DNA of 58,316 nt, the filler included, from Dugesia japonica (Eukaryota), in assembly GCA_001938525.1 (NCBI GenBank). It is 6 parts of 6 records of this genome, joined end to end, with 100 filler letters (N's around TTAATTAATTAA, not from the genome) between each part and the next. Parts side by side here need not be neighbours in the genome. Positions count along the whole stretch, not along the records: positions 43,824 to 58,316 come from MQRL01398792.1; 5 more parts are not named here. The stretch is one strand, 5' to 3'. Under the pieces are notes generated by a model. It worked only from the letters and a program-made list of their open reading frames with translations, ran no database searches and was not told where the DNA came from. Positions 8,617 through 56,427 of the stretch are shown piece after piece. A program made the position numbers and the translations under genes. Within the stretch, counting starts at the first letter, position 1; every line of letters starts with the position of its first letter.

Positions 8617-8617
8617 N
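8560..8617. repeat. (AAT)n microsatellite
   Basis: Perfect AAT run into a gap. Confidence 0.95.
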
Positions 8618-14091: not shown

Positions 14092-14142
14092 TCATTTGTT
14101 TATACGTGATGCATTTGATTGTTTTCGTTTTTTATTAGTCGG

Positions 14143-14480: not shown

Positions 14481-14489
14481 AAATTGATT

Positions 14490-30439: not shown

Positions 30440-31440
30440 TTGATCTGTGATGAATACCATTTGAGGCATATTATGTTCTACAAATTCCGAAAAAATATGA
30501 TAGTGACTGACGCTACAAGTCAAATCATTGAGGTTTATCGGAAATGTCAGGGATGGGTGCTAAATTCCGTTTTATGAGACATCAGTCTCCAGAACATATC
30601 TTACGGGTGCTTACAAGGGTTAGATAGTAATAAAGAATTGGAGAAGCTATTGAAATCAAACCCCAGAATAACATCGCGCGTAATTGCGATTATAATAATA
30701 TGCTTTTATGTGGGTATTCGACAACATCTTAAGCTAATAGGAAAAGTGTCGAGTGAAGTTATTGTGGATTCCTCATAAACTTTTTGATCAAAATCGAATC
30801 CAAAAAGAAAATCTCTGCTTTTTTGCTCAAAATAAATAGAAGAGAATCATTTCTCTATAGAATTGTTGCAAGGGATGAAAAATGATTTCTTTGTGCCAAA
30901 GTCAAAAAATGGAAACTGTAGTTAAGGCCTGGCCAATCAACGATTCTAACTCCAATGACAGGCTTTTGCCCTAAGAAGGTTGTGATGTATTTGGTGGAAT
31001 ATAAAAGATTATTCTACTGGAAACTCCTTGATTCGAATCAGATCATTACTGTGAATGTATATTGTGAAAACTTAGTTCAGGTCAACAACTCATTCAAGGC
31101 CACTTGTTCTGCTTCAGTCAATAGAAAAGGAATTATTTTTCAAAACAATGTGTGACCTCATATTACAAGAGTGACTTTACTAAATATACAGAAGTTGGCC
31201 AGAGAAAACTTGCCACCCCAGCCTTATAGCCGTATCATGGCTCCAACGGTTTAGCATCTCTTTCATTTATTACAACATCACTTGTGTGACAAACAATTTA
31301 ATAAATAGGAAGAAATCAAATAGCTTAAATGTTATTATTGTTTTAAAATCTACCAATTTCTTCAAAGATTGCATCAAAAATTTGGTTAACAAATGGGAAG
31401 ACGTTGTAATTAATGAGGGTCATTATGTTACATTTTAACT
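30440..31440 (+). mobile_element. Mariner transposon, heavily decayed
   Basis: HLRHIMFYKFRK, YRIVARDEK*, VNRKGIIFQNNV*PH and QPYSRIMAPT remnants; TIRs not resolved. Confidence 0.8.
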
Positions 31441-31628
31441 GATAGTTAGTGTTGTACCTTTTTTATTTCTTATAAATTCATTTAAGTTTGTTTTTAAATA
31501 TTTTTTAACACATAAAGTAATTCGAGAATTATAATTTGGTCAATTGAATAAATAAATAAATTAAATGATCATTAGATTTAATAAACCTAGGACTTTATTT
31601 ATTTATCATTTTCAATTAATAATTTCAG

Positions 31629-32013
31629 AATTCCATGCCTATTACAGCTTCTGGAAATCTATCTCATTCACAAAATTTAAAAAGTTCGGTCCAAATGCCA
31701 ATGGNAAACCTCCAAACAATATCGTATGCGCCACCAGTGCCTTATGTTATCATTCCTTCCGGGGAAAGTCATAACTTGTCAAATATTCACTATACACACA
31801 TGGCTATTGAAGCCACACAATTAGATTCCAATCAGAAACATTCTTTTCACAAATCCAATTTCAGTTTTCCTTTACAGACCTGTACAGGTGGTCTCTCAGT
31901 AGCTCAAAACAATTTTGCATCACCATATCAATCAATAGAACATTACTCTTTGAGGAAGAGTTACTGCATTCCATATCAACCAGTTTTATTTCGGAACTGG
32001 CCTCTTTATACTT
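31629..32013 (+). CDS. Candidate internal exon of an unknown host gene (S/N/P/Q-rich)
   Basis: Open frame bounded by tttcAG and GTAAGT; no recognisable domain. Confidence 0.45.
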
Positions 32014-33156
32014 GTAAGTTTCTGTAAATTTAATAATTACGCTAAATATTGTATTTTATTCGAATGTACCACAATTATTTCTCTCATTAAGAAATTCAGA
32101 TAATTTATTTATTTCCGCAAGTATAATCAACTGTATTGTTTTCTAGCAATAAATGTTGAATTGATTTCATAACGTAGAATGATAATTTTATACGCAACTT
32201 GAAATATAAAAATAGTTTTTAAAAAAATAGATAAAAACATTTAAAAGAAGTCAAATGTAAAATGTTTGTTTATTTTCTCACAAATATTTGTGTATGTAAT
32301 TGTTGATTAGCAGGCATATTCAATTGAAAATAGGAAGGCTTATAGAATATCATGAAATGGCGGGATTTTCTTTCATAAAAGATCAGAACTTTTTATTGAT
32401 AATTTTAAATTAACACAGCAGATATAATTGACAAATAGTGCGTCAGCAAAATGTAAATTTTCTTTAAATGAGGATCTGTCTTCAATTTCAATTTGATTCC
32501 CCGCAGAAAATTAAGAATTTGATGCAAGACTTTTGATACAATAAGACTTATAATTACGTTTTTCTAATATTTAAAAATAATATTCAGAAAGTTTATTGAT
32601 TACCTTGTTTTCCTTTTCAGAATATTTAATAATTTCTCTTATTATCTACCCAAATCAACACAACTGAGTGACCAGATTTTATTGTAACAGCATGCCTTTT
32701 ACATGAATGTATTTGTCCCTTTATTAGAATAAAATGAACATTGATTACATTAGGAATGGAATGATGGTAATTTCCTAAAGTTGAAAGTGTAATCTAATAT
32801 CCATTATGATATCAAAAGTTTCTTGAAATAATCTTGTGAATGAAAATGTCAGTTTTATTCGACAAATTTATAGAATTGTAAAATTTATTAGCAATAACCC
32901 GTCAGGAATGACGGAGTTTCCTCATGCTTTAATGCGGAATTTGTGAGTGGTGATAAGTTAATTTTATACTATTGTATAACTATTATGTAATATCGATAGA
33001 ATAGAAATTTACATGAAAATTTGGTGATATGCATTTGAAACTTTATTGTAAAGTAAAAAAATTTAAACTCCTTATAAAATTAATTAATTCTTTTAACAAA
33101 TAAGATTTTAGGTAAAATCGATTCAATTTAATTTTGGTCCCTCGTTGCAAATTATA

Positions 33157-34360
33157 TATTAGATTGTTCCGTAAGTAACTTCGGTTTTTTTAGTGGAATT
33201 GAAACTAAAAATTTTTATTCGTAAAATGCATTTTACATTTTGATCCAACACATTCTGCCATCTACCAGGTAATTATAAGATTTCTTCTGTATGGAACCTT
33301 TTGTATTTATTTTNNNNNNNNNNNNNNNNNNNNNNNNNNNNNNNNNNNNNNNNNNNNNNNNNNNNNNNNNNNNNTCAAATATTCCGCCCTTCAAAGAATT
33401 TTGTAGGGATCGAAATAAATGAAAATCGGATGGATATGGTGAATGCGGTATTCAAGATACAGTAGTTTTTGCTTAGTCACCAAACACGTGAGGTCTGGCA
33501 TTGTCATTGTGATATACTAGTTTTCTTCTGTTAACCAATGCTGGTCTCTTTAACTTTATACATTCATTCAATTTGTCTAGTTGGTGACAGTAAACCTCGG
33601 AATTATTAGTTTGATTGCTCGATAGCAGCTCAAATAAATTACTACTTGTCAGTCCTACCAAACAGAGATAGATTCCAGTTTTTTGTATGCTTTGACGTGA
33701 TTCATCTCTTCTGTTCCATGACCACTTGATGCTTTAGTTACTGTAGGTAATTCGATTCTCATTACTTGTTATAGTGCCTTTCAAGAATGGTTCATTTTTT
33801 TGACGTTTCATTAAAAAATTTCAGATATCAACAAGACGAATAAGTTCCCTTTTTGTAAAAAAGCTTGAAATAAAGATATCGATCTTTGCGACATAATCAA
33901 AGTGCTTCAAATTGTTGTGGAAAGTTCAATCATACAGATTTTATTTCTTCGATTTCCCGTTTTTTATGCCAAAGCATCAGCTTTGACTGGCTTTCCAGAA
34001 TGTGGTTCATCTTGAAGGTCGAAATTTCTTGAACGAAACTTAGAGAACCAAGTTTGACTTTGGCATTCGGTTATCTCATCTTCCATACACTGCTCATAAT
34101 CGTCTTCTGGCAGGTGCTGCATTTATACCTTTTCAGAAATAAAATAATAGAACAAAATAATAGCAATTTCTTTTCAGCCAATTCAAATATCCTACCTAAA
34201 AACTAATTTGATAAATTAAAAATATATTTACCAATTAATCAAACTAGATATGTCGATTGTTGTAATGAGTATTGATTTAATAAGTTCAGTCTTTTCTGTT
34301 ATAAATTAAGACTAAAACATGAACACAAAAATCCGAAGTTATTTTACGAAAAACCTCATA
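33157..34360 (-). mobile_element. Mariner transposon, decayed
   Basis: TIRs tattagattgttccgtaagtaacttcgg / ccgaagttattttacgaaaaacctcata; LVNRRKLVYHNDNARPH. Confidence 0.88.
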
Positions 34361-35639
34361 TTTTGTTGAATTGTAGAAATTATTCAGTAAAAGCAATTAG
34401 ATTTTTAAAGTTTAACTGTTTAAAGCAAAATAAGAAATTATTATAAAACACTGTTAATGTTTAAAAATTAAAAAATCAATAACAGACTTCAAAAATAAAT
34501 TAATATGTCATTTTAAATATTGTGAAAATAATGTCGAATATTTCACAATCAATCACGGATAAAGTACATACATTGTAATTGTAAAATTTCTGTTAGTTCA
34601 AATAGTCATTAAATCTAGAATATTGTGTATTCAATATTTCTATTAATATTAATAATGTTTAAAGAATCTTAGATCATTATTGTCCAATTATCAACATTAT
34701 CCCAGTGAGAATAACATTTCCTTATTATCATCATTAGTCATGTCAAGACCATCATATACATTTAGACTGAAAGATCACTGGGAGAGGACACTCCAAAGAA
34801 GAATTAAATGTACATCAAAATTTACCTAGTTATTGAATTGATTCTTGTTTGTTAACGTAGAAAAATTGATTTCACTGCTGAACAATTTGATTTATTTATC
34901 AAACCATTTAGAAAATTTAAATATTTAATTGNNNNNNNNNNNNNNNNNNNNNNNNNNNNNNNNNNNNNNNNNNNNNNNNNNNNNNNNNNNNNNNNNNNNN
35001 NNNNNNNNNNNNNNNNNNNNNNNTGGTTATGAATTTTTTATTAAGGATGTATACTGGCTTCGTAAACGATACCTGCACTAACTAAACCGTCTGCAGGTGA
35101 TTCGTTAGTCTATATTCAATTGTTGGTGTCCCAAAAATGTTACATTAAACCTAAAATTGAATGTTTTTTCTCAGTTGAACTGTATACTTTTAGAGTNNNN
35201 NNNNNNNNNNNNNNNNNNNNNNNNNNNNNNNNNNNNNNNNTTAATTAATTAANNNNNNNNNNNNNNNNNNNNNNNNNNNNNNNNNNNNNNNNNNNNTAAT
35301 TTAAAAAAAAAATTTTCTGATCCGATCAAAAAAAATTTTCCGATCAAAAATTTCATCCGATCAAAAATCACACCAAATCAATAATCTAAAATCACACCAC
35401 TAATCAATAATCTGGTGGTGAAGTTATCAAGGAAATTCTTGCTAGAGCTTCGCACTAGCAAGGACAAAGGAAGATGACTGCTTTTAAAGGATATCTTCTC
35501 TGGCCCGTTCTATAGCGGAGGAACCAGAAATGTTAGGCCGCAGGCCGAAGTACTCGTTCATACTTAAAACACACAATTGTTAAATATTGGATGGTAATAT
35601 TTATATCATGGTTACCTTTGACTTTTATTAGATGAATCA

Positions 35640-36864
35640 TTTTCGAGAAGCAGACGCCAAAGCAGAGGCCTATGTGCGGTCATATGTAGATCACGACGGC
35701 AATTACTACATCGAATGAAAGGAGGTACAAGCACTGTTAACTCAGGTGAGGAAGGAGCAAGCCCTGATAATACAAAGTTTAAAGACTCATCTGAAGACAG
35801 CTCAGTTGCAGATAACCATCAAAGATGCTAACTGGCGCATGGTGGAGTATCAACGAAGATGCCTACAAGAAGACTATGAGATGGAGATGAGATCACATCT
35901 GGAACCCGCGTAGGAAGTGAGGCTACTCATAACCAATATGCGAATTTTAACCGGAGTAAATGTGGAAGAGGATGAAGACGAAGAAGCTTGTATTGTCCGA
36001 GAGCTCATGGGAATGAGAGACATCGCACCGCTGAGTTTAGATAATTGATTGATTGTGGCATAGTTTTAATAATAGGAATTGTTGTAGTCTCAGTTTATCT
36101 TGTAATTTTGTTTTTTGTAGGTTGTTGGAATAGAAATAACGATTTTGTGATATACATGTCACGTTTTCTGACATGAGTGTTTAATTATGGGTAGTAGAGG
36201 CAATCATAATCTTTCTGATTTTTAATTCATCCACTGATCATTTTAATCACTATGTTGAGTACATCTATTACGAGTTAATAAATTATGTCGAAAATAATAT
36301 TGAATAGAGTTAATTTAATTTAATTTTGCTTTGTTACTTTTAGTGAACAAATCCAGCGAAGATAAAGTACATAAGGAGTTTATAAAGGCACAGAAACGAT
36401 GTACCAATGAGCGCAGGAAGTTGCGGAGCAAGATCTTACGATAGAAAAGAAAGGCCACAAAGTCGGCCTCCAAGTTTGCCCAACTATAGGAAAAAGAGTT
36501 ATCTCTCCAACAGGCATACCATCTCATGGCGGACGTAATAAAGATTTACACCGATTGTGAATCTGCAATGTTTGCGACTCTCCGTACGCTAACGATGAAC
36601 TACAGATCCACACCAGCACAGGCTGAGGAGAACTCTGTGGAAGTAGATTTGGATGTTTGATGTAATAAATATATATCAGTGTTGAAAAGTCTCCACTTAA
36701 TTTTCGTGATGGTTATCTATGACCAGTTTTAATCTCGTGATTGATGACAATTAAGTACTGAGCGAGATTTTTATTTTATGTCCATGGTTCAGAGGAGTAG
36801 AGTGCAAGACGCGATACCGCAAAGTCGCGCTGGGTCCAGGAAAGAAAGGGGCATGATATAGAGA
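35640..36864 (+). mobile_element. Unknown cassette copy A (coiled-coil ORF remnants, conserved motif, PPT+TG); possible 3' region of a large LTR element
   Basis: Collinear homology with 41295-42507; ends AGGAAAGAAAGGGGCA|TG. Confidence 0.5.
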
Positions 36865-37440
36865 TTATTATTATTTAATTATTATAAATAAAATTTATAT
36901 TTGGATTGTCTTCTTTGATTAGTATTTCTTCATGTTTTTTTCTTGTGAAGTGTTGAAATGTAGCCTGTTCCTAGCGTTTTCCATTTTATATGTTGTTGTT
37001 CTGGTGAAATTCTATGTTTGTGTTAAAAGTGTTTGAAGACTTCACTTTCATTTTGTTCCTTAATTCTTGTTCAGATAGTCTGCATGTTTCACCTATATAT
37101 GTTTCTTGACAAATGGTGCATGTTATTTTATAAGTGACATTTTTCTTATTGCATATATTTCTACCATCACAAATGCATTTGAGACCACAAAATTTGTCTT
37201 AGTTTCTGTAATTGGATACCCAAAGGCACTTGCGTTTTAAATATAATTCTTGGTTTGTGTTTGAGTTTAGAATTCTTTATTATATTTTGCATGATTTGGC
37301 TACATTTCTCATTAATAAAAGGTAATTTAATAATTGTGTTTGTTCTTGATTTGATTTTATTTTGTTTTGTATTCAAAGATACATATCTCGATATAATTTT
37401 TTTTGAGTAGCCGTTATTTAACAATTTATATTTTACCAAT
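36865..37440 (-). mobile_element. Penelope-like element 3' fragment (GIY-YIG endonuclease)
   Basis: KNVTYKITCTICQETYIGETCR; close match to 46780-47330. Confidence 0.88.
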
Positions 37441-39179
37441 TTCAGACGAAATTCAGAAATATAATGAGATCAATCTGGAGCTGAATAAATGAACTTAAGA
37501 AAATATAAGGAAATTAATGTGAAGCTGGAATTGAGTCTGAAAAAACTAAATGTTGTCAAATAACAAATGAGATAACAGTTAATCATCAAAGATAAAGCCA
37601 AGTATGAATTGTCCAACCATGGGGATCAAGAGCTAATCGAGGACAAGGAAATCGTAGATGTACTCTCGTTAAGTTTGGACAAATTAATGAAATTCAAAGT
37701 GGAAACGAGCAGAATCCAATGAGCGCAGTTCGCATGGAGTTCGGATGTTCAACGGTAATTTTTGATTAAAAGGAGAATCTGTGGGTAAAAGAGAATAGCT
37801 GAGTAGTAAAAGTGGTTATTTTACGAGAGTTCGATTACTATATAAACAGTCTAATGAAAATGCTTTTTTATGCTTTTATTAGTTTTTTTAATCAATTTTT
37901 CAATGAGTAAAGTTGTGATAAAAACTGTTTGTGCGGCAAAGTCATTAATTAAGTTAATTATTATTTAAACATAGTTTGCAGATAGATCGATAGGGAAACA
38001 CGTAATAGAGCTCGGCACGATTGGGGACGGAAAAAGATGACGGTTTCAAACTTACATCTTCTCCGGTCCGTAATGCATGAGCGGGGACAAAAACATGCTA
38101 AGAAATCGTTAATCTAGGTTAAATTATTAGAAATAAATAATATTTGGTTCAATGATAAGTCTACTAAATGTTTCATTTTTAGTTTTTGTTTTTGCGGAAT
38201 ATGACTAAGTACTACAGACCTGACATACCACTAATACCGATTAATGATGAAGACGAGGGTACTTTCTGGGTACCTTGGATATGTACCATCAAGGTGATTG
38301 AGGAGAGGAAGAAAGCCTATGACAAAGATAAGAGAGAAATGAAGTTGGCCTAACAAGAGCTGTTAAAAAGAAATATGGAATTACAGCTAAGGTTTAAAAT
38401 GCTACAGGATATGAATGAGGTTATGAAGATTCAGCTACCACTGCGGCGGTTGGACTTACAAACGACGACCCATGACCTCACAGTGGCTACTCAACAAATG
38501 ATAGATCAGCGCTGTCTGTTAGAAAAAATGGCGGAGTGATTGTTCTATAATTATGATCATGAGCTGCAGAGGCGGCAAGTTTTTCGGTTAACGATGAGTG
38601 ATTATTATTATTTAATTAAGTAGCAGAGGAAGTCGCTTTGATCTATGATTAATAAAAATTAGGGTACTAAGTTTGCTATCTTATAAATGAGATTATCATC
38701 GATCTGTGTCATTATGTTCTGTCTTTTAATAATTATCAAATTATTTAATGAGAAAATCGAGCGAAGAGTCAACGCACCGAAAAGAATTCATAAACGCACA
38801 TAAAAGATGAGCCAAAGAGCGCCGAGATTTAAGAAATGATTATTAAATAAATTGGTTAATAATTTCAGTAAAAAACCTTTTAGTAAATTCTGGGTAATAT
38901 TTTGTAAACAGGTTGATTAAATATTGAGTAACGAATTTTAGTAACGATTTTTGAGTAACAGTGAAGTAATGATCTTAGTAATTGAGCACTGGAATTATTT
39001 TGATATTTTATTTCTTTTTGATAGCTATAAATAGTATTATTACATAATATAGATAATTTAAAATCATTATAATTACAATTATTGTGAGAATAATTGTTGG
39101 ACTTAACCATTGATAGCATTTAAGATTTCATTAAAATAAAGAAAATGCTTCGATCAAAATAAAATGTATTTGTAAAAAG

Positions 39180-39213
39180 GTTCAAATTTTCGACAATAGT
39201 CTTCTTCAGGAAC
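39180..39213 (-). ncRNA. Minimal type I hammerhead ribozyme
   Basis: gttc-CTGAAGA-A-GAC-tatt-GTC-GAAA-at-TT-gaac; intact core and stems, palindromic AATT at stem III. Confidence 0.75.
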
Positions 39214-39339
39214 ATGAAGGCTTCCTAACATATTCAACGCAATAGATCTTGTTTAGATTTTTCAGTAACAAAGAATTAAGTAATAAATTGAAATGAGTAA
39301 CAAAGATCTATTGCGTTGAATATATCAAGAAGCCTTCAT

Positions 39340-39373
39340 GTTACTGAAGAAGACTATTGTCGAAAATTTGAAC
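39340..39373 (+). ncRNA. Minimal type I hammerhead ribozyme
   Basis: gtta-CTGAAGA-A-GAC-tatt-GTC-GAAA-at-TT-gaac; one stem I mismatch. Confidence 0.65.
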
Positions 39374-40492
39374 TTTTTTACAAATATTTTGATAGAAGAT
39401 TTGTCTTTATTTTAATGGAATTTAAAATCAACTCGTATATAAAAAGTACCATCGTGTGTGTCTGGTGGTGACGTGGCAAAATGATGATGAGCATAAGCAG
39501 ACTTAGTGAGATATACAGGCTGCTGGATGACAAAGAGCTTGAAGAGCACGGTTATCTTTGATCTGACAGCTCGAAAGATTTTATCACAAGCATCAGTTAA
39601 ATAATGTTTAAAATGAAACGATAATAATGATGAGAAAATGATTCAAATGCCAGTTGGGTGAGAGTTAGTATGCAAACTTGCACACGCCGAGTATTGGGAT
39701 CAATTCAAAATAAACATCGATTAATTGATTATTAAATGATGGAGAATAACATTAAATGAATAAAATGATCTGAATGTGACGTGAATGTGAGGAAGAATCG
39801 TGACTAAGTCTCACTGCGCATCCGGATTGTATTTTGTGAATGATAATCGAATAATAAATAATTAATAAAATAATTCGTAATAAATAAATTAAAATAAAAT
39901 GATAATGGAGTGGTTCCGAATGAGCGTGGTGGTGAAATCGAAAAGAGAATCTCACAACTCCCATCATTAAGAATGCCTCAATTTAAGCGTCGTGCTCTAA
40001 ATAAATCGTTTAAATAAACAATGATTAGGGCGGGCAGTTTTTGTAAAACATAAAAGCCAAACTACTGCGACTGATCATATAATATATGTCGAAGGATCAT
40101 CATTGATTAGTAACAAAATCGGAAAAATTTAATTTACGGGCACGAAAGTTGTCTACGAAAACAACAGTAGTGGAAACTGGGACTAAATCAATAAAAATTT
40201 GACACTCGTACAACTGAAGCAGCAAAAGTAAAATTCACATTAACGATGAATAAGTATTGAATAAATTTAAACCATTCTTGATTATTATATTATATTATAT
40301 ATTAAAACATGTAAATATCCATGGACACCCTCTGGTATTTTTTAATGGATATATTTTATAAATTAAAAATGGTGAGTTTATTTATTTATTTAATTTTATA
40401 TCTTAAATTTTTAAAANNAAATTTTTAAAAGTTAATTTAATGTTAATTTATTGTTAATTTAAAACTGTTGAATTAAAATTTAAGAAAATCTT

Positions 40493-43417: not shown

Positions 43418-43591
43418 CTATAATATATGGTTACTATGTATTAACACACTCATAATTCTTATAATAGATAGTTGCTATGTAAATAATACAAGGTAACTAT
43501 GTAAATCATATACTCGTAAACTCTATAATACATGGTTACATCTATTATAAGAATTATGAGTGTGTTAATACATAGTAATCATATATTATAG
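43418..43591. repeat. 174-bp foldback / MITE-like element with ~52-bp inverted repeats
   Basis: ctataatatatggttactatgtattaacacactcataattcttataatagat versus atctattataagaattatgagtgtgttaatacatagtaatcatatattatag (one mismatch). Confidence 0.85.
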
Positions 43592-43823
43592 GGTCTATGA
43601 GTATATTATTTATTATTTATACTATATTATTATATTATATATTTTTGTAAGATGTGAGACCAACATATGTGGATAATAAAATCCAAGCCAATTGAATATT
43701 ACAAAATTCAGATTTAGTCAATCNNNNNNNNNNNNNNNNNNNNNNNNNNNNNNNNNNNNNNNNNNNNTTAATTAATTAANNNNNNNNNNNNNNNNNNNNN
43801 NNNNNNNNNNNNNNNNNNNNNNN

Positions 43824-44458
43824 GAGGAATTATCAATTGAGTTATATCTTTTATCATCTATAATTGGGTGAGGAATAATTCTTTGAAAAGGTTTTAAAAC
43901 TTCATTTCTGGTTGTATTATATGGTGTTGCAAGCTCTGTAATTTTTTTCAGCATTATTTTTTTATTCATTTTATCTATGTAGTAATCATGGGAATTTCCA
44001 GTGTTACTCGAACCATTGGATAAAGATTTGAATTTCCCATTCGAAAATCGGTTTGAATTGTTAGAATTGATTATTAATCCTTGATTTGGGTTATTACTAG
44101 GTACCAAGCGAAAGGTAGAATTTCTAAACGCTTTGAACGCATTTATTTGATTTCTTGGTATCAACTTTATTTCATTTGTAAACAGTTTATCTGAAACTGT
44201 ACTATTATTTTCATTTGGCCTAGAACAAATCGANNNNNNNNNNNNNNNNNNNNNNNNNNNNNNNNNNNNNNNATACTTATTGAAATTTTCATTTTCTTTC
44301 ACAGTTGTTTGGCAACCAGATTTACAGAAATTTTGAGAAGAATAAATTCCAGAATGGATTTCGTTGCTATTATTTGTAATTATATCATAATTACAATTAG
44401 AAATATTTTGCGAAAAATTATTTGTACGTTGTCTACCACCGTTATAGCTTTGATACAT
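43824..44458 (-). CDS. Candidate first coding exon of an N/S-rich host protein, truncated by gap
   Basis: ATG-initiated frame open for ~210 codons across one small gap; no domain recognised. Confidence 0.45.
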
Positions 44459-45308
44459 TACAAATCAAAATAACATTTCAAAATGAATTTAAATTAAAAT
44501 GTAACAAATTCATATGATAAAAAATATTTAGCAACTTGACAATTTTGAATTAAAATTTTATTTATTTTTTTAAATCAGAAATTATTTGTAGCCAATAAAA
44601 TTTAATCAATTTATTATTGAGTCAAATATTATTTAATAAAATTTTTAAATTTATTTTTAATTAAAAGATTATAAATAATAAATTATAACTCCAAAAAGTT
44701 TTTTGCAATTAATACAATTAGTACTTGTAGCAAAAATTCTTTGTCCATTTTTTTTATTAATTAACAAAGACAAATTAAAGAAGATTAAAATAAATACTTT
44801 AATTTGGTAACCAATAGAATACAATGTTAACAAATCTCAGTCAAAACAATCTAAGCGTTTTACCATTGTTAAAGTCAACTATATATATTCGCACATGCAT
44901 GAGTCTAACTTGGTTCTATGTTTTGTTATGACTTTAGTTGTGTTCCTTTTTAACTTTCAAAGAATGTTCGTTACACTGTATATTAGCTTTAATAATCGGG
45001 TTAATAAATTCAAAGCATGATTAATCATTTTGTACCCAAGTCCTGCTCTTGTAATACCAATAATTACTTGATATAATGTGAGATAATAATTTTTTCACGT
45101 AAGATTTTGAGCCGACATAATAAGCTGCAGAGTTATGCTTATTCTATTTGGTAGTTTAAGCAAAAAAATTATTTGTCAGACTGCTAACAAATATCACAAA
45201 ACACCAACTGATGAGATATTATTCTGCCTGCTCGATAAGTATGTATACTAATTTTTCAAGAAAAAAATTCAAAAATACAAACATAATCAGAAAATATAAC
45301 ATAAAATA

Positions 45309-45708
45309 CATTAAATTGGAAGTAGCGACGGGTGGTGTGTACGAAGGGTGTGTACATAATCAGCGCAAGCTAGTAACTTGCGCTTACTAGGAATTCCTCG
45401 TTCATGTGAAATAATTACAATTCTCAATCCCTGTTACGACAGTGTTTCATAAGATTTCCCAACTATTTATAGTAAGGTATACTCGTTAGAACTGCCATTG
45501 TAGCGCGCGTGCGGCCCCGGATATCTGAGAGCATCACATACATATTATTGCTCTTTTTCATTTAGTTAGACGCTATTTATTCTTCTAAGTAGTGATTATT
45601 TATGAGTTAAAATAAATACACAGCAAGTTAGAGTCTCGTTCATTATAGGAATTAACCTGACAAATTGCTCCACCAACTAAGAACAGCCATGCACCACCAC
45701 CCACTGAA
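45309..45708 (-). pseudogene. 18S rRNA fragment (3' third), degenerate
   Basis: Minus strand carries GGTGGTGGTGCATGGC.GTTCTTAGTTGGTGGAGC, GCCGCACGCGCGCTACA, AACGAGGAATTCCTAGTAAGCGC and GTACACACC.CCCGTCGCTAC, with substitutions at normally invariant sites. Confidence 0.93.
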
Positions 45709-47535
45709 AGTTAAAATCAATTATAATTACACCAACAGATAAAAAAATGAATTGGTAGCTCTATCTAAAAAAAACACAATGAATTTTTTTCAGAACATTA
45801 CAATAATTATGAAACAATAGATTACAAAAGACTACCAACTACAGAAGAAATTAAATTCAACAAACAATTAATAAAATATTTACTTTTAGAAGTTAAATGT
45901 CATGAACCAGTTCCATCATCGATGTAATGTGTTCCTAAAGATCACAAAAAAAAACAATGAAAGGAAGATCTATTGCAAACGCTTCTGACACTCCTTCTAA
46001 TGCATTATGCAAACATTTAGCAGATATATAGAAATCACTATTAAGTTTCATTTCGGCACATTTAAAGAATAGTAATGAGTTTATCGAACAAATTAAAAAT
46101 TTTAACTGGGAGAGTGATGATGAATTTGGTTCATTAGATGTAACAAATCTATATGGATCAATTCCCATTGAATGATCTGAAAATGTCATTGATATTGTAA
46201 GTGACTTCTTGGAAAGATACAAAGAACATACAGATATTACAGAAATCATCAAAAATGATTTCAAATGTATTTTCAATTTGTGTCTCTTCTCTGATAGCAT
46301 TTTCATCGGTGAACAACTTTTTAAACAAAAAGGTGGTCTTGAAATTGTTTATAATTTCTCTCCAATTCTAGCGATAATTTTCATGAACTTCATTGAAAAT
46401 CAAATAATTCTTAAATCAAACTAGAAAATTCATCGATGGTTTAGATACATAGATGATATTTTCTTTGTAACTAATTCTCCTTTAGAGAACATTTTTGAAT
46501 TAGCCAACAGTATAAATATAAACATTAAATTCACTTTAGAGAAATCAATTGACTTTCCGATTCCCTTTTTGAACACTTTGATCCAAAACAAACCTGGTGA
46601 TATATTAACTACCCAATTATATATGAAACCATTTCACAGTGGACATATATTACCTTGAAGTAGTAATACTACNNNNNNNNNNNNNATTGGTATAATTAAA
46701 GGTGAAAGAATTCGAGCTGAAAGACTATCTTCAAATGAAGAAATGAAATTGATTTCTCTCAAATTGATAAAAAATAAACTTTTAAATCACGGCTATCCAA
46801 ATAAAATTTATTCGAAATATTTATCTGTAAATACAAAACAAATTAAAATCAAACCAAAAACAAACAAAAGGAGAAATGTAGCCAAATCATGCAAAATATA
46901 ATAAAGAATTCTAAACTAGAACACAATCAACGAATTATATTCAAAACGCAAGCAACTTGGTCATCCAATTACAAAAACCAAGACAAAATCTTTGTGGTCC
47001 CAAATGTATTTGTGATGGTAAAAATATATGCAATAAGAAAAATGTCACTTATAAAATAACATGCACCATTTGTCAAGAAACATATATAGATGAAACATGC
47101 AGAACCATCCGAACAAGAATTAAGAAACATTTGAAACAAAAAGAAAGTGAAATCTTCAAACACTTTCAACACAAACATAAAATTTAACCAGAAAAACATC
47201 ACATAACATTAAAAACACTAGGAATGTCTACATTTCTACACTACATAGAAAAAAAACATGAAGAATTACTAATTAAAGAAAACATTCTTAAAATCAATGT
47301 AATTTATAATAAGTAAATTATTAATAATTAAAATAATTAAATTTAAGTAAAAATTTAAATTAACAACACTAAAATGTAATAAAAAAATTAATTCAAAAAT
47401 AATTACTATTCTAAAGATAAATCTTGAATGAATTAAAAAGTCAATTCCTGATGAAGACAAAGTCGAAATATAGAATTGTTATCAAAAACCAAAAAAAAAA
47501 CAAATTTTGATCGAAGCTTTTATTTTAAATGAATT
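45709..47535 (+). mobile_element. Penelope-like retroelement (RT + GIY-YIG), 5'-truncated, with 3' pseudo-LTR
   Basis: IIITPTDK, GSLDVTNLY, FKQKGGL...FSPILAIIFM, WFRYIDDIF, NGYP-like, NVTYKITC..CQETYIDET; stops and frameshifts. Confidence 0.92.
47442..47478 (+). ncRNA. Minimal type I hammerhead ribozyme in the PLE pseudo-LTR
   Basis: CAATTC-CTGATGA-A-GAC-aaa-GTC-GAAA-ta-TA-GAATTG: 6-bp stem I, intact core, palindromic stem III. Confidence 0.85.
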
Positions 47536-48902
47536 GATATAGAATATATATTCCAATATACCCTGATAATAGTCACAAGGCTGCTGTCAAATTTCATGTG
47601 GCTTATCCAAAAATACTAACATTCCGTTTGAATTGAGAAAGGCCACAAAATATTCCAAAAGTATATGGATTGAATCCTGAGAAAGTCCAAGTCATTTAAT
47701 GTTGATGACGTTGATGACGTTCTCCTGTTTTCACTGACAAAACCTCACACAGAATATATAAGAACGAATTTATTAAAAATAATGGCTCCTTTGCATTATC
47801 TAGTTGCTGACGTACGCAAAACAGAAAATATTTGTTGCTGCATTACAGATATTCAACTTTAAAAATCAGAAAATTATGTATTTTTATCTTTAATGAATCT
47901 GTCGCCAAACAANNTAGAATCAATTTCACCTGACATGGTTCAAATTAAATTTATTTAATTTATTTAAAAGACATCTTTGAGTTAGTATTTCTTTGTGCAT
48001 CTTTATGAATGTAAAATTAATTGCATTCTAATTGAAATTAGACATCAATACTAATTATTGTGATATGTATATCATTTTCTTATTATAAAGGGTACTAAAG
48101 ATTCAGACCCAAATTGTTTATATCACCTCAATTTTATTTGGTAATAAGAATGAAATGTTCAACAATTTTATGTTTATTATTATAATTCGAATCCTGGTTA
48201 TATAATTAATGTAACCTATCGTTCACGTACTTATCAAAAATGACTTAGATATCATTAGGTATTATATGTACGTCAACATATTCTTTCTATAGAAAGCGTT
48301 TCAATAAGCTTCAGAGGAAGATAAAATGATAGACAGGAAATAGATCCTGTGCAATCTACTAATATAATTATAAATGTGTTTGGTGAATAAAATGTTTGTT
48401 ATCATTAATTTGTTTTGAAAAATGAGCATCGAAATTCATTTTGTCGCTAACATTCAAAAATCTCAAAGATGGGTTTCTACAAAAACCCACTGCAATCGGG
48501 AAAAGAAATGAAATTATACATTTCCCCAAATACTTGAGGCTCCAGATAGAAAAATGTGCAATGAAGAAAGTAATTGAAGTTGTACAAGAAGATTTAAAAG
48601 CCTAGGAACACATCATGTACTTCTAAAATTCATAAGACCAATGAAAATAAAGATACGTAGTAAAAGGCTGACCAATCAGACAAGAGTGAATCATCTTGTG
48701 ACATTTGTGTGATAATTACAAATCGATACAGAGAACAGGAAATACATAGAATAAGTGCCATTCAGAAACATTGAAAATCTTAAGTTTATAGAAAAATACA
48801 AATATTTTAAAAACAAATATTTCATTAAAATATTATTATAAAAATAATTTATAAATCAATTATTTTTTAGATATTATTAATAAGTAAATTTTCGACTTTT
48901 AA

Positions 48903-51900
48903 ATGAAAGGAAATTTGCTTCAAGAAACTTATTTTAAAAACATTAATCTTTATAAATCTGTTCCGAAAAAGCAGATAATTACCGAAGAATTCTGGTTTGT
49001 TAATGCAGGAATTTTACCCGATTCGTATTTCGACAAAGCATTAGTTGTAATTGGAACTTATAAATTTAAAACTGATGAATTACGTTTTATTTTATTTTTG
49101 GGAATAAAATACTTAATTCATTATATTGAATTATTTTCATTTGATAATACTCCATTGTTAATTGAATCTATAAATAGACACCTGAAATATTTGGAAGCCT
49201 TATTAAGTAAACAGAAAAAATGTAGAAATTATCTTAGTTACAGTTATATTAATAAATTAAGATTTGTTTTTGAAAGTCTTCAAAATATTGAATATAATAA
49301 TTATGTTTGTCGGCAAATTTATATTGATCAATTGGAAAGATTTTGCTGTTTATTTTCATCTCGTTTGAAAATATGGATAAAAAATTCTCGGCTGCAAGCT
49401 TATTTGATAAGATTTGGATTTGATCCTTACAGAACTTCTGCTATTTATAATTCTTTTCTTGTTCCCAATGAAAAGAAATACATTGATCCATTATTTCAAG
49501 TAAATCAAAAATTTATTGAAAAAATGGGAACACGATGTAAATGTAAAATAATGCTGTCAATTGAAAGTACCGAATGCTATCTGTTTCCAGAATACATTAC
49601 ACTTGAAGTATTATTTGATTTGTATCATGGAAATTATATGGGTTTTGTAGAAATGTTTGGTTACGTAATTAAGCAATTAAATCCAACACAGTATTTTGTA
49701 AAATCTTGCAGAACAATTCTTATAGAAGGAGCCAGACTTTACAATATCTTAACTGACGTTCCAGTAAGAAAATTGAAATATTTAGAGAAAACTGTAATCC
49801 CAGGATGTCCATGCCCTCCTTTTCTTAATATAAATAGTATAAGTAAACAATTTCTCAATATTGTTGAAATGATTCGGGAAGAAGAAAATAATGTAGTCGG
49901 TTTTCGAAGTACAGAAAAATCAAAATCTTACAATTCCAATGAAATATCAGACGAGACCGGTTTGGATTTCAATAATGAACATTATTATAAAACTCATTCC
50001 AATGAAACTGAATTATCGAAATTGAAACAAAAAGTTGATCATTTAAATCATTCGCATTTATTGTTAAAATATTTCCAAGAAAAATATGATGAAGAAATGA
50101 TTAAAATTAATCTTAAGAACCAAATGAAAAAAAACAGATTATTAATGGGTATAAACAAATCGCAGACTCAATCTTCTTTGCCTTATGAAATTCCGTCGAG
50201 TAATATTAAAAGTAAAAGACATTTATCAAAAAATGACCAAATTATTCACGAAGCATTACCAGAAAATCAATTGAACCTAGAAATAAATGAAATAGATGAA
50301 AAAAAATTTGTAGATGAGAAAAATAAAAATCTAGAAGAAATTATGACACTGAATGATAGTGTTGATCCAATTTATCAGGAGATAATTCGTGAAGTTAATC
50401 AAAATCAATCTTTAAACGGCAATAGTCAGGTTAATGAAAGTAATATTACTTCAGGAAAAAATGAACAAGTTGAAAAGAAAGGTCTAATCGATTTTGTCAA
50501 TCTTACGCCTTCAGAACAATTTAGTATTTTATTAAACGAAACTTTTAACATTTATTCTGATGAATATAATTGGATAAATCATAAAATGCGACTTATGCTA
50601 AGATGCAGAACTGAACAAACAATTGACGATTTAAAATATCCATACATATTTGAAAGACGAACTATTAGCGATAGACTGAGACACAAACATGCTTATAAGA
50701 AAAAATTTTACAAACATAATTTATATAATCGATCGTACTCCAATATACCGAAATTAACGTCTAAAATAACAACAGTTTCATCAGATCAATCATGGATTTC
50801 ATTTGAAACTAATAAAATTTTATCTCAACATTCATTAACAGAAGAAATTATTGACTCAAATTCAAGTTCAAATTCTGAAATTAACATTTATGATGCTAAT
50901 GATTTAAGTAAAGAATTGCCAGATGTAGCGAAATATCTAAGAAAATTTGATATGAGATTAATGGATACATTTATTAGTCGAAAACTGTTTCGCAAGCAGA
51001 ATTGGATAAATTTTTTAGAATTGAATTTAAATTTTCACTATTCAAGAGAAATCGAAATTTTCAAGCTGTGTAATACAGAAGATATTTACAGAAGAGTTTA
51101 TGAAAGTCATTCAGATGAAATTGAGAGTTTTAAAGACCCACTGAAACAAAGAATATACGCATTACTGATTCTGCTAACAAATGAAACGATAACGAATAAA
51201 AATTTTCTTGAATTAATAGATGGGCAAGGAATAAACTTTACAATTGTTAACAAGATTAATAAATCTCGTTCAGCTTTTCCAACATTTGTTGGTAATCTGG
51301 ATAAAATTAAAAAGAAAGATTACATTGGTAATTTATCAAGATGTTTATGTCAATTAATGTATGATTTAATTCATCTTGGTTATGAATGTTCTTCTGAATT
51401 ATTTTACATTATGAAAGCTCACACTTCTGCTTTAAGTGAAATTTTAAAGAACATCAATGATGAAGATATACAATCAGCTTTTAAAACGTTAAACATAATA
51501 AAGGATTTATCAAAGTTCAATATAAAGTCAACTGTAAATGGTACAGGGCCAAATACATCTATGCTTCATCTAGCAGAAGAACTATCATTACTTCATGATA
51601 TAATTTTTAAAAACCCATGTTGTTCTTATAAAATACACAAACATCTTGGAATACACATAATCTATCATTCAATGCAGTTAGATGACAGATTAAACGCAGT
51701 CGAACCGTTTTTGAAATTACCTGGTGACAGAAGAATTAGAAAAATTGAAAAAATGTGCAACTGTCTTATTGCATTACGAACTGGCCAACATCCGATTGTT
51801 CCGATGAATCAATACCATGTAGATATTTATTATGACTTCGAAAATGGTAATCATTTTGGTGCCATGGAATTATTGAAACANNNNNNNNNNNNNNNNNNNN

Positions 51901-52145
51901 NNNNNNNNNNNNNNNNNNNNNNNNNNNNNNNNNNNNNNNNNNNNNNNNNNNNNNNNNNNNNNNNNNNNNNNNNNNNNNNNNNNNNNNNNNNNNNNNNNNN
52001 NNNNNNNNNNNNNNNNNNNNNNNNNNNNNNNNNNNNNNNNNNNNNNNNNNNNNNNNNNNNNNNNNNNNNNNNNNNNNNNNNNNNNNNNNNNNNNNNNNNN
52101 NNNNNNNNNNNNNNNNNNNNNNAAAAAAAAAATATTTTCAACTAA
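48903..52145 (+). CDS. Unknown ~1070-aa protein, paralog 1 (true C-terminus hidden in gap 51881-52122)
   Basis: Uninterrupted ~990-codon frame in ~25% GC DNA; collinear homology with 53302-56427. Confidence 0.9.
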   Translation: MKGNLLQETYFKNINLYKSVPKKQIITEEFWFVNAGILPDSYFDKALVVIGTYKFKTDELRFILFLGIKYLIHYIELFSFDNTPLLIESINRHLKYLEALLSKQKKCRNYLSYSYINKLRFVFESLQNIEYNNYVCRQIYIDQLERFCCLFSSRLKIWIKNSRLQAYLIRFGFDPYRTSAIYNSFLVPNEKKYIDPLFQVNQKFIEKMGTRCKCKIMLSIESTECYLFPEYITLEVLFDLYHGNYMGFVEMFGYVIKQLNPTQYFVKSCRTILIEGARLYNILTDVPVRKLKYLEKTVIPGCPCPPFLNINSISKQFLNIVEMIREEENNVVGFRSTEKSKSYNSNEISDETGLDFNNEHYYKTHSNETELSKLKQKVDHLNHSHLLLKYFQEKYDEEMIKINLKNQMKKNRLLMGINKSQTQSSLPYEIPSSNIKSKRHLSKNDQIIHEALPENQLNLEINEIDEKKFVDEKNKNLEEIMTLNDSVDPIYQEIIREVNQNQSLNGNSQVNESNITSGKNEQVEKKGLIDFVNLTPSEQFSILLNETFNIYSDEYNWINHKMRLMLRCRTEQTIDDLKYPYIFERRTISDRLRHKHAYKKKFYKHNLYNRSYSNIPKLTSKITTVSSDQSWISFETNKILSQHSLTEEIIDSNSSSNSEINIYDANDLSKELPDVAKYLRKFDMRLMDTFISRKLFRKQNWINFLELNLNFHYSREIEIFKLCNTEDIYRRVYESHSDEIESFKDPLKQRIYALLILLTNETITNKNFLELIDGQGINFTIVNKINKSRSAFPTFVGNLDKIKKKDYIGNLSRCLCQLMYDLIHLGYECSSELFYIMKAHTSALSEILKNINDEDIQSAFKTLNIIKDLSKFNIKSTVNGTGPNTSMLHLAEELSLLHDIIFKNPCCSYKIHKHLGIHIIYHSMQLDDRLNAVEPFLKLPGDRRIRKIEKMCNCLIALRTGQHPIVPMNQYHVDIYYDFENGNHFGAMELLKXXXXXXXXXXXXXXXXXXXXXXXXXXXXXXXXXXXXXXXXXXXXXXXXXXXXXXXXXXXXXXXXXXXXXXXXXXXXXXXXXXKKNIFN

Positions 52146-53301
52146 GCTTGAATTTAAATTAAATTAATTAAATTGATAAACTTATATATTAACAAATTGT
52201 ATAATCGAATTAAATTAATAAAGCAATTTTGTTTTGATGACTTAAAAATTCAGTAAATTATTTTACCCAATTTACTATTTTATTTTAATTATATTCTTTT
52301 ATATTATAATTATTATAATAATTTATTATAATTATATTTTATTTTAATATATATATATGTGAAGTTTTAAAAAATATTGCCAAAAAACCCTAACCGCAAA
52401 AGATAGAGAATTTAATTTTCTATAATTCATATATCCATTTTCAGAAAAAATGTTTGGTTTTTGAGATATATAACATTTTAAGAATTTCGACTCTAGGAGG
52501 GTATCTATCAATTTTTCAAATTGAAACTAATGTCATTGACCTTTAAATTAAAAAGTGTCTATACATTCTCTTAAAATATATTACCAAAAAAAAGGTCATT
52601 AGAGTCGGTAGATAGTCTACTTTTCAAATTATTGAAAACTAAAGTATATAGTTGGATAGGAAATTAAAAAGTAAGATGGGAATGTGCCATGAGCTTGTAT
52701 CTTAAAATTGTTCCTTTCCCATAAAATTAAATTTTTATATGATTTTTTTTTCAAAACTTATTTTAACTAAAAATAAAAAGTTCAAAAAAAATAAAATATA
52801 AATTGAACTCATTCAACCCAATTGTTACATTATTTTCTTGATTATCGTATATGGACACGGATAATCTTCCAAATCAGATGCAAAATCGTAGTCTTCATGA
52901 AAATATTCTAATATTTCTCTGAAATCTATCGTTATAGTTCATGCGTCTCGTTTTTCTTTCCAATTTTGGAAACCTTTCGTTGATTACCTTTTCCCAATTT
53001 CTAAAACATAAATTAAAACAATAATGATAATTAAAATTCTTTACCATATTAAATCACTTTTTTTATTATCGTATTTAAATAGGAAATGAATTGCTTTATA
53101 AACAAATTTCATGAAAATTCTCTAAATTCGAGAAATTGATATTTACTAAATAAAAGTAATGATAATATTTTACAACTAATATATAATAAAATAAAATATA
53201 ATTATAAACTATATAATAAATAAAATATTGAATTTTTCAAAAAAATAAATATTGATCTTCTTTCTTTTAATTTATAATTTAACCCATTTTAGTTCTTAAA
53301 A

Positions 53302-56300
53302 ATGAAAGGCAGTTTTATAAATTCGGCAAAATCTCCCGGAGTAGAAATAATACCAAAAAAATATTTGATTGATGAAAACTTTTGGTTTGTTAATGCTGGA
53401 TTACTTTCTGATTCGATTTACAACAGAGCGGTATTATTTATAGGAACCTTTCCATTTAATATTCGGGATTTTAATTTTGTTTTGTTTCTTGGAATTAAAT
53501 ATCTGATTCATTACATTGAATTGTTTACATTTGATAATACACCTTTGTTGATTGAATGCATAATGAAACATTTGAGATATTTACAGGCACTTCTTGGAAC
53601 TCAAAGAAAATCAAAGAAATTTCTTAATTATGGATTCATAATAAAGCTTCAGTATATTTTTAATAATCTACAGAATGTCGATGATAGAAACTTTGCTTGC
53701 CGACAAATGTATATTGATCAATTGGAAAGGTTCTGTAATTTATTTGTTGGTCGCTTAAATATTTGGATAAAAAATCCTCGTCTTCAAGCCTACTTATTCA
53801 GATATGGATATGATCCGTTTCGTTCTTCGGTGATTTATAATTCTTTTCTTATTCCTAATCAGAAACGTTATGTTGATCCATTATGTCGACTAGATCAGAA
53901 ATTCATAGAGAAAATTGAAGTCAAATGCAACTGTAAAATAATGTTGAGTGTTGAAAATACAGATTGCATTCTTTTCCCAGAATATATAACACTTGAAGTT
54001 GTTTTTGATTTATATCGAGGAAACTATGTTGGTTTTATTGAAATGTTTGGTTATATTGTCAAAAGATTAAACCCAACACAATATTTTGCGAAATCACTGA
54101 GAACTGTGTTGATTGAAGGATCTTTACTTTATAATATTTTAACTAATGTTCCAATTAGAAAATTGAAATATCTAGAAAAAACCGTTACAGCTGGTTGTCC
54201 GATAACACCATTTTTAAGCGTTGGAAGTATAAGTAAACAACTTCTTAGTATAGTAGCAATAATGCGAGAAAACGATAATGATTTTATTAATAATACAATG
54301 AAAGAAACTTTATCTGACTTTAGCGAAGAAAATTCAAAAGAAGTAGATCTGAATTTTGATAAACAAAGATATTATACTAGCCATTCAACTGTTAGTGAAT
54401 TTAATAAATTACAAGATAATATCAATGATATTAATTATTCTCAAAAGCTTTTGAAATATTTCAAATCCAAATATGATATTGTCATGCAAGAAATTAATTT
54501 CGAAAATGAAATCAAAAAGGAAAATATAAGAAAATTAATAACATCCCAGGAGAATTCGCAAATATTGATGCCGAAAGTAACAGTGAATGAGACTCGAAGC
54601 GATAAACCTGAAACAGTTAATCAAATTGTTTATAAAGATCTACCTGAAGGTTTTGTTGAGAGTTCAAATAATTTCAAAAATGAAGTTTTGTCATTTGATA
54701 AAGAAAATATGAATTATTTAAATACTTTGAAAGATATTCCGAAAATGAAAGAATTTTTAAATAACAATATTAATGAAAATAATATTTGTGCTATTCATAA
54801 AGAATTACTCAATGATTCTGATATAGATTTTGAAAAGCTTGAACCAATAGATCAATTCAAATTATTACTGAAAGAAACATTTACGGATTATTCTATTGAA
54901 GAAAATTGGATAAATCATAAAATGCGATTAATGATGAAATGTAATACAGAAAGTACAATTGATGATTCTAAATATCCATATGTATATCAGAAAGCAAGCA
55001 TTAGAGATAGATTAAATAAGAAGATACATTATAGAAGTAAGTTTCCTTTGCCACGTGGAGTTTCTCGGACATTTTCAACTCATAAAGCCCAAACGAAAAT
55101 CACAAATCAAACCTCTAGACGTTCTTGGATATCGAAAGCTGCCAGTAGATTATTATCTGAAGGTATTAAATCCCATGATGATGCCGATTCCTACAACAGT
55201 TCACTTTCCGATAGTGATATTTTAAGTGGTGAAGAATTGAAAGAAAAATTTCCGAAAATATTTTTATTTCTAGAAAAATACGGTGAAAATCTGATTGATG
55301 TTTTTTTAAGAAAAAAACTTTACAAAAAACAAGATTGGATGATTTTTCTAAGTAAACAATTTAATTTCACAATTTCCAAAGATCTCTCGTTGAAACGACT
55401 CTGTGATTTTGATAGTATTTTCAAAGCGATTTGCGAGAAAAACTCGGAAAAATTAGAAAATTTCGATGAAGCAATAACTAAGAAAATCTACGCTTTACTG
55501 CTTTTATTAACTGACGAAATGATTACTCAAAAAGAATTTAGTGATATTTACAATGGAAAGGGAGTATCTTTGTTGATTATTAATAAAGTAAATCAATCTC
55601 AAACTTCTGTACCAACTCATATTGGGAATTTAGATTCGTATAAATCAAAAGACTATTTACCAAATTTGTCGCGTTGTTTATGTCAAATGATGTATGATTT
55701 AATTCAAATAGCTCATGAAAGTTCACAAGATGCATTTTATATTCTTAAAATACATATTTCAATGCTAGATGACATTCTGAAAAACATTCAAGATAAAGAT
55801 ATATTAGCAGCGTTTGAAATATTAAATATTCGAAAGTCTTTATTATCACTAGATTTTAAAACTTATATAAGATGTTATGGTCTTGATGGTTCGATGATTT
55901 TAATGGCAGAAGAACTATCATTTCTTCATGATATTATTTTTAAACAGCCATGTTGCTCTTATAAACTAAATAAACACTTAGGACTACATATAATCTATCA
56001 TTCTTTGAAATTAGATGATAGACTGAATACAGTTGAACCGTTTTTCAAATTACCCGGAGATAGAAGAATAAGAAAAATAGAAAAAATCTGTAATTGTTTA
56101 ATAGCTTTAAGATCTCAGAAACATCCAACAGTTCCAATTAATGAATATCTTGTTGATATATTTTATGATTTTGATACTGGGAATCATTTCGGAGCTATTG
56201 ATTTATTAAAACAACTGATAACATCAACAAATAAGTTATTAACCATTCAAGACCATCGAACAATTGTTGCTTATCCGTCAGGTGAATTATGGGTGTTCAG

Positions 56301-56427
56301 AGATACTGTATGGTTGAAGAAATGCTATAACATTAATGAAAATGAATTAAAGAATTTAGAATTATTCCGAAAATTTGACGAAATGAAAGATAAATTTCAT
56401 AATTTCTATGACGATAAGTATACATAA
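53302..56427 (+). CDS. Unknown 1041-aa protein, paralog 2, with an internally duplicated module
   Basis: Intact intronless ORF; conserved N-terminal, central and C-terminal blocks shared with paralog 1. Confidence 0.92.
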   Translation: MKGSFINSAKSPGVEIIPKKYLIDENFWFVNAGLLSDSIYNRAVLFIGTFPFNIRDFNFVLFLGIKYLIHYIELFTFDNTPLLIECIMKHLRYLQALLGTQRKSKKFLNYGFIIKLQYIFNNLQNVDDRNFACRQMYIDQLERFCNLFVGRLNIWIKNPRLQAYLFRYGYDPFRSSVIYNSFLIPNQKRYVDPLCRLDQKFIEKIEVKCNCKIMLSVENTDCILFPEYITLEVVFDLYRGNYVGFIEMFGYIVKRLNPTQYFAKSLRTVLIEGSLLYNILTNVPIRKLKYLEKTVTAGCPITPFLSVGSISKQLLSIVAIMRENDNDFINNTMKETLSDFSEENSKEVDLNFDKQRYYTSHSTVSEFNKLQDNINDINYSQKLLKYFKSKYDIVMQEINFENEIKKENIRKLITSQENSQILMPKVTVNETRSDKPETVNQIVYKDLPEGFVESSNNFKNEVLSFDKENMNYLNTLKDIPKMKEFLNNNINENNICAIHKELLNDSDIDFEKLEPIDQFKLLLKETFTDYSIEENWINHKMRLMMKCNTESTIDDSKYPYVYQKASIRDRLNKKIHYRSKFPLPRGVSRTFSTHKAQTKITNQTSRRSWISKAASRLLSEGIKSHDDADSYNSSLSDSDILSGEELKEKFPKIFLFLEKYGENLIDVFLRKKLYKKQDWMIFLSKQFNFTISKDLSLKRLCDFDSIFKAICEKNSEKLENFDEAITKKIYALLLLLTDEMITQKEFSDIYNGKGVSLLIINKVNQSQTSVPTHIGNLDSYKSKDYLPNLSRCLCQMMYDLIQIAHESSQDAFYILKIHISMLDDILKNIQDKDILAAFEILNIRKSLLSLDFKTYIRCYGLDGSMILMAEELSFLHDIIFKQPCCSYKLNKHLGLHIIYHSLKLDDRLNTVEPFFKLPGDRRIRKIEKICNCLIALRSQKHPTVPINEYLVDIFYDFDTGNHFGAIDLLKQLITSTNKLLTIQDHRTIVAYPSGELWVFRDTVWLKKCYNINENELKNLELFRKFDEMKDKFHNFYDDKYT

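Follow-up and report, generated by a model that had tools for sequence, protein, structure and literature searches.

What are two long, neighbouring open reading frames (ORFs) of the same orientation, set among decayed transposons and short exons in the genome of Dugesia japonica? They lie between positions 48903 and 56427 of the window (the whole stretch that was analysed, 58,316 nucleotides of GenBank assembly GCA_001938525.1, made of six parts joined by filler), and a first-pass annotation had described them as a tandem pair of large, intact, intronless genes of no recognisable family. The evidence presented here supports the view that ORF1 and ORF2 are old tandem duplicates retained by purifying selection, and reveals in them an internal repeat, absent from that earlier account, of a module whose fold is probably KH-like. 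The locus is arranged as follows, contig depth being that of X3, a public DNA run independent of the window sequence:

48903..51878, plus strand: ORF1, readable part, 992 codons, after which the frame enters a gap
51881-52122: gap of 242 Ns, presumed to hold the tail and stop of ORF1
52123..53301: AT-rich spacer with genome-wide repeats inside (X3 contig depth 160-5400, versus mostly 10-20 over the ORFs)
53302..56427, plus strand: ORF2, a complete single open frame of 1041 amino acids (aa)

Ten N-free open stretches of at least 130 codons occur in the six frames; two of them reach 992 and 1044 codons, the remaining eight only 131-174, and the chance of the two long lengths at the composition of the window is ~1e-39 and 1e-40. 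The five other frames across ORF2 contain 58-143 stops apiece. The earlier statement that these are the only long intact frames thus stands for N-free sequence, where two of the ten stretches exceed 174 codons, but frames of 355 and 230 codons also exist, both containing Ns. Likewise, the two same-strand frames were correctly recognised and ORF2 is complete, but ORF1 can be called intact only as far as the window is readable, that is to codon 992; the ~1070 aa once assigned to it came from reading through the Ns of the gap. The 241 letters with which an X3 contig (record 10) bridges this gap include 66 that match ORF2 at 56267-56332 (aa 989-1011), so that ORF1 very likely carries a tail paralogous to that of ORF2. 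If the two tails are equal in length, the stop of ORF1 is predicted to fall near 52094, giving a total of ~1063 aa. Since a Met-Lys start occurs at the same position in ORF1, ORF2 and a relative, P0003 (see below), the annotated ATGs are favoured as the true starts. There may nevertheless be an upstream untranslated exon. The following element precedes ORF1:

48863..48870, plus strand: splice-acceptor-like T-rich AG, 32 bases before the ATG of ORF1

A second T-run AG, read by eye and failing the pattern of our script, ends at 53292 before ORF2; both are likely to be chance occurrences in such AT-rich DNA. A run of 10 As directly after the N gap is equally unremarkable at ~73% AT.

The two proteins are 51.3% identical over 970 aligned codons, and 209 of their 498 identical residues are encoded by different codons, in agreement with the synonymous differences that had been reported within shared, near-identical peptide blocks, all four of which we recovered. 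Fourfold sites differ at 73 of 120 positions (0.61, saturation being 0.67); this nearness to saturation makes the synonymous rate (dS) imprecise and places the duplication far in the past. The ratio of non-synonymous to synonymous rates (dN/dS, Nei-Gojobori method, 95% confidence intervals in brackets), which had been suggested as a check on the pair, is 0.31 overall (0.25-0.39) and hence not near 1, as neutral drift of the copies would have it; it falls to 0.18 both for aa 21-325 (0.12-0.26) and for aa 861-992 (0.08-0.32). Even the linker, previously called barely alignable, aligns at 32% identity, with a ratio of 0.62 (0.40-0.90). An old duplication with both copies under purifying selection was therefore rightly proposed. 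Constraint appears to extend to the present day: the ORFs are covered by four long X3 contigs, which are free of gaps and contain 32 differences relative to the window, and among the 25 of these that are listed, 19 lie inside the ORFs, 11 of them synonymous, 8 non-synonymous and none nonsense, which points to constraint because synonymous sites make up only about a fifth of all sites. Two small indels, listed for 49111 and 49128, belong to other contigs of X3 and not to the long one. In organism B (run X14), one contig reaching the 3' end of ORF2 has 7 gap letters, and the other seven pieces listed are ~97-100% identical with no gaps.

Both proteins share a predicted layout, namely a helical bundle, a first module, a flexible linker, a basic and helical middle part and a second module, to which the following segments correspond:

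53410..53802, plus strand: predicted helical bundle, ORF2 aa 37-167, ~61% identical between the paralogs and also present in P0003
49020..49412, plus strand: counterpart of the helical bundle by paralog alignment, ORF1 aa 40-170
53827..54114, plus strand: KH-like module (probable fold), N-terminal copy, ORF2 aa 176-271
49437..49724, plus strand: KH-like module (probable fold), N-terminal copy, ORF1 aa 179-274
49878..50492, plus strand: hydrophilic, fast-evolving linker, ORF1 aa 326-530 (ORF2 counterpart ~aa 323-507)
54823..55017, plus strand: conserved middle block, ORF2 aa 508-572, 59% identical (ORF1 50490-50684)
55987..56331, plus strand: C-terminal module copy with beta-beta-alpha extension, ORF2 aa 896-1010, the best-conserved part (77%)
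51654..51878, plus strand: C-terminal module copy, ORF1 aa 918-992, truncated by the N gap

The module comprises ~95 residues and occurs twice per protein (in ORF2 at aa 176-271 and ~896-990) and once in a second relative, P0004, making five copies in all. When the two ORF2 copies are compared by hhalign, they match with a probability of 88.7 and an E-value of 2.6e-6, and the N-terminal copies earn 37.0 and 28.1 bits with a profile of the C-terminal module, where none of 1000 shuffles exceeded 5.8. N- and C-terminal copies are 23-28% identical, and 11 columns are invariant in all five, including Cys-x-Cys-x-Ile and Gly-Asn-x-x-Gly. The beta-beta-alpha extension that follows the C-terminal module is common to ORF2 and P0004, and the helical regions preceding the two module copies show no measurable homology to each other.

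How far does this family extend? A profile of the pair, run against 1.84 billion proteins, returned two matches, neither of which bears a functional name. P0003 (ENA, 181 aa) is 57% identical to the N-terminus of the pair, with which it shares the N-terminal helical bundle along with its start. P0004 (a hypothetical protein from JGI/IMG, 568 aa) shares the C-terminal ~150 residues only; its single module and C-terminal extension, the same as in the pair, align at 34-35% identity (E 3e-16), but its N-terminus is acidic, rich in Lys and of low complexity, and its helical part is without measurable homology. A profile of the module likewise found P0004 only among 7134 longer candidates and nothing among 285 short ones, and a word-index protein search with ORF2 confirmed none of 8000 candidates. 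Neither Pfam nor NCBIfam family libraries matched the proteins, and sequence searches of the PDB gave no useful match. Metagenome contigs yielded none of 315 and none of 608 candidates, and owing to the latter result the locus of P0004 was not retrieved. Helical-repeat clusters of the ESM Atlas, with best scores of 0.83 and 0.82, were rejected because these lie within the range of shuffled proteins. Text searches of the literature turned up no description of this family, such searches being blind to an unnamed sequence. As far as databases reach, then, the pair would be lineage-restricted, as originally supposed, in the relative sense that little-studied animal groups are thinly covered in protein collections. 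The phrase "no recognisable family" remains true of sequence libraries, but no longer of the proteins as such, in which a module occurs repeatedly whose fold is probably KH-like.

The assignment of that fold comes from two low-confidence AlphaFold models, in which the module forms an alpha/beta sandwich, with strand 1, helix 2, strands 2-3 and the last helix built for each copy. For the C-terminal copy, KH domains come first in two of three fold comparisons with the PDB, and in all five copies the hydrophobic residues of helix 2 and strand 2 are spaced in register with the KH domain of PNPase, by a pattern written after the queries had been seen. Weighing against a KH-like fold, neither copy is given the first KH helix in the models, and for the N-terminal copy ferredoxin-like folds score as well as KH or better. 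The GxxG loop that joins helices 1 and 2 of type I KH domains (defined in PMC3413153 and PMC11261784) is present in none of the five copies, each of which has Asp or Asn in the loop. The Pfam KH profile matched none of the five members with either of two trims, nor the whole proteins, in a HMMER search whose filters hide weak matches. The N-terminal model also matches, weakly, 9sfp_K, a chain of mouse oocyte cytoplasmic lattices (rank 29, E 0.066, probability 0.72).

We consider two other accounts of the module. The one that would disconnect it from KH altogether takes it to be ferredoxin-like (beta-alpha-beta-beta-alpha-beta around a four-stranded sheet), with the invariant Cys-x-Cys serving metal binding, redox sensing or structure. 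The scores of the N-terminal copy keep this a serious if unlikely alternative; the ferredoxin-like matches are, however, mostly at 2-15% identity and scattered across unrelated families, and the invariant Cys residues fall where the KH motif has T and A/T. Heavy-metal-binding ferredoxin-like domains, moreover, have their CxxC after strand 1, whereas the CxC of the module sits at a helix end. The other account accepts KH ancestry but holds that RNA is still bound directly by the basic second helix of the module, which would make the pair non-canonical RNA-binding proteins and not pure scaffolds. The basic helix (R/K-R-I/L-R-K) is indeed kept in the three C-terminal-type copies, that of the distant P0004 included, and the middle region is locally basic (+9 at ORF2 aa 551-600). 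Standing against it are the loops described above, a module net charge of about zero (+1 to -3), and the finding that a GDDG loop abolishes binding in the six KH domains tested (PMC3413153). Because KHDC1A/B of the KHDC1 family are described as binding polyU without GxxG (PMC2938380), direct RNA binding stays a live rival, if in our estimate an improbable one. We take the module to be probably KH-like, and infer its descent from type I KH domains.

Known systems offer the following comparisons. With the type I KH domains of hnRNP K (KH3), FUBP1 (KH4), IMP1/2 (KH34) and PNPase, the module shares the predicted order of strands and helices, an antiparallel three-stranded core, the way in which helix 2 and strand 2 are spaced and the occurrence of more than one copy per protein. 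It differs from them by the missing GxxG, by a lengthened stretch from strand 1 to helix 2 in which no helix is built, by one or two additional strands beyond the last helix, by its invariant Cys-x-Cys and its Gly-Asn motif, and by the placement of its copies ~720 residues apart and not in tandem; there is no match at the level of sequence. The KH-like (KHL) domains of PARP9, PARP14 and DTX3L were found by fold comparison only and have a protein-binding role (PMC11080071). Foldseek probabilities for the module are similar to those reported there, at 12-17% identity and equally without GxxG, but macro, PARP, RING or RRM domains were not detected in our pair and there is no sequence relation. 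The extended di-KH of KHNYN and N4BP1 (PMC11997328) combines non-canonical KH modules with a helical bundle, as the pair does with its KH-like ones, and that of KHNYN is described as being without RNA binding; in the pair, by contrast, a nuclease domain was not detected and the modules are not adjacent in sequence. The KHL domains of PARP9, PARP14 and DTX3L have been shown to act as docking surfaces (PMC11080071), and the same has been proposed for KHNYN (PMC11997328). Finally, the KHDC1/DPPA5/ECAT1/OOEP proteins are eutherian, small (KHDC1A ~19 kDa) and built on a variant KH without GxxG (PMC2938380). Lineage-restricted and GxxG-less like the pair, they offer a model for germline-restricted use, but the pair, at ~1040 aa, with two modules and no sequence match, does not fit that description.

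What, then, might the pair do? Our tentative proposal, possible but held at less than even confidence, is that these tandem duplicates under purifying selection, with two GxxG-less KH-like modules each, provide a protein-docking surface for an RNA-handling complex in a restricted tissue, probably the germline. An ancestor with one module, like P0004, would have doubled the module inside the gene, and tandem duplication of the whole gene would have followed, an order read from identities alone (23-28% between module copies, 51% between paralogs). A helical bundle and two KH-like modules carried on a flexible, fast-evolving linker would present docking surfaces for proteins, a role made likely by the lack of the GxxG loop; by analogy with the systems above we infer a scaffold. 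As to where it would act, two bulk RNA runs chosen by species label alone contain almost no reads from the pair. Only 57 of 10.5 million reads in X21 and 252 of 13.6 million in X22 were placed on the stretch, 54 of the 57 and all of the 252 being partial fits, and most lying on the repeat-rich spacer. Expression at 1 read per kilobase per million (RPKM) would have given 64 and 83 reads, respectively. Transcripts of ORF1 and ORF2 are thus essentially near-absent from both libraries. Strong constraint together with this silence suggests a restricted tissue or stage, which we guess, by analogy with the KHDC1 family, to be germline or embryo, and this is the weakest step of the proposal. A bolder version is speculative and quite improbable: an old, undescribed invertebrate family of GxxG-less KH-like modules with invariant Cys-x-Cys, its module and then its gene doubled, might act as a scaffold for RNA storage in the germline or egg, convergent with the mammalian KHDC/OOEP oocyte proteins and switched off in animals without gonads.

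The same silence could conceivably reflect genes that have lost a former function, as recent pseudogenes or dispensable duplicates, the more so as constraint between paralogs records the past. We regard this as very unlikely, for the frames remain open among decayed elements, and the X3 differences lean towards the synonymous (11 of 19), with no nonsense change among them and the four long contigs free of gaps. Least probable of all, though close behind, is domestication from a virus or DNA transposon, the module being a fold of the HUH/Rep or Y1-transposase type. Its attractions are the intronless coding regions, the mobile-element debris in the window and some weak rows of the fold comparisons: a REP-associated tyrosine transposase at rank 4, IS200/IS608 transposases with a target template-modelling (TM) score of up to ~0.4, and, in BFVD, parvovirus NS2 and circovirus-like proteins. 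Yet HUH endonucleases and Y1 transposases have a conserved His-hydrophobic-His motif, and no His is among the 11 invariant module columns. Nor did we find a viral, phage or prokaryote relative: IMG/VR gave none confirmed of 45 pattern matches in one scan and no pattern match in another, 89 candidates from prokaryote genomes and a phage search were negative, BFVD held no match at E 0.001 or better, and PHROGs returned a single match to the linker (E 0.002), treated as compositional. The GC content at third codon positions (~0.20) agrees with that of the AT-rich window. Similar X3 contigs pile up on the spacer and not on the ORFs, each of which is tiled by long contigs, making many close copies unlikely (contig depth is not a copy number), and the ORF flanks carry no shared or clearly terminal repeats, so that the dispersed copies with transposable-element termini that might have been expected of a mobile family were not seen in the window and the X3 contigs, which leaves room for diverged copies elsewhere in the genome. 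For the retroposition that had also been suggested, a check confined to the window saw neither a poly(A) remnant nor a shared flank beside the ORFs; poly(A) remnants and target-site duplications would be erased before divergence came this near to saturation. In sum, no support was found for a viral, horizontal, transposon or retrocopy origin, and a tandem pair of constrained host genes with probable KH-like modules remains the account that we prefer.

With respect to copy number, X3 joints at contig depth 10.2 connect ORF2 position 53858 with 56149 (on a side of 26 letters) and 56189 with 56271 (on a side of 41), involving the sites 53833-53858, 56149-56189 and 56271 onward. They may stem from a third, diverged paralog elsewhere, considered because this depth differs from that of the contigs of ORF1 itself (9.78 and 10.9), and short AT-rich matches such as these can arise by chance.

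Tandem, lineage-specific, single-exon genes are not unusual per se. What the analysis adds is that two apparent orphans become a defined family with a constrained, repeated module of probable KH ancestry that sequence libraries miss. Should the pair be specific to gonad or embryo, it would be a candidate for lineage-specific germline RNA machinery, and should the module not be KH, it would still be an undescribed domain under strong constraint.

The surroundings of the pair, at ~27% GC and with 23 N runs in the window, consist of the following:

919-1139, 39118-39428 and 43418-43591: self-complementary elements, foldback or like miniature inverted-repeat transposable elements, arm identity 78-83%
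4239-5804 and 13059-14636, minus strand: a segment in two decayed copies, 66-73% identical, without Pfam or PHROG match
7792-8560, minus strand: two short exons with VWA-domain matches, a fragment of an intron-bearing host gene
8665-9732, minus strand: frame of 355 codons with N runs inside and no library match
12166-12600 (minus strand), 30922-31155 (plus) and 33473-33733 (minus): mariner-type transposase fragments with Transposase_1 matches
15800-17260, minus strand: long-terminal-repeat retrotransposon fragments with an RT_RNaseH match
31623-32027, plus strand: Ser/Pro/Gln-rich frame of 134 codons with the look of a host exon and no Pfam match
36864-37452 and 45900-47330 (the latter on the plus strand): Penelope-like element remains with a weak GIY-YIG match, two copies in opposite orientation, 82% identical
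43772-44464, minus strand: Asn/Ser-rich frame of 230 codons, broken by N runs, without family match
45400-45701, minus strand: decayed fragment of eukaryotic 18S ribosomal RNA (two Rfam matches)

Such content is that of eukaryotic, probably animal DNA, and the 18S fragment, the AT content and the repeats would suit a freshwater planarian; a search of the plasmid set with an 18S fragment gave no useful match. The VWA-domain exons look like parts of a CLCA-type gene. The decayed pair of segments presumably resembles a capsid-region gene of Polinton/Maverick elements, and the 355-codon frame a polymerase ORF of Polinton type in its N-terminal portion, both assumptions of ours without a library match. 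Five linker blocks of 100 bases (8617-8716, 17264-17363, 26046-26145, 35197-35296 and 43724-43823) each consist of 44 Ns, a 12-base spacer with stops in six frames and 44 further Ns, and none of them lies between ORF1 and ORF2.

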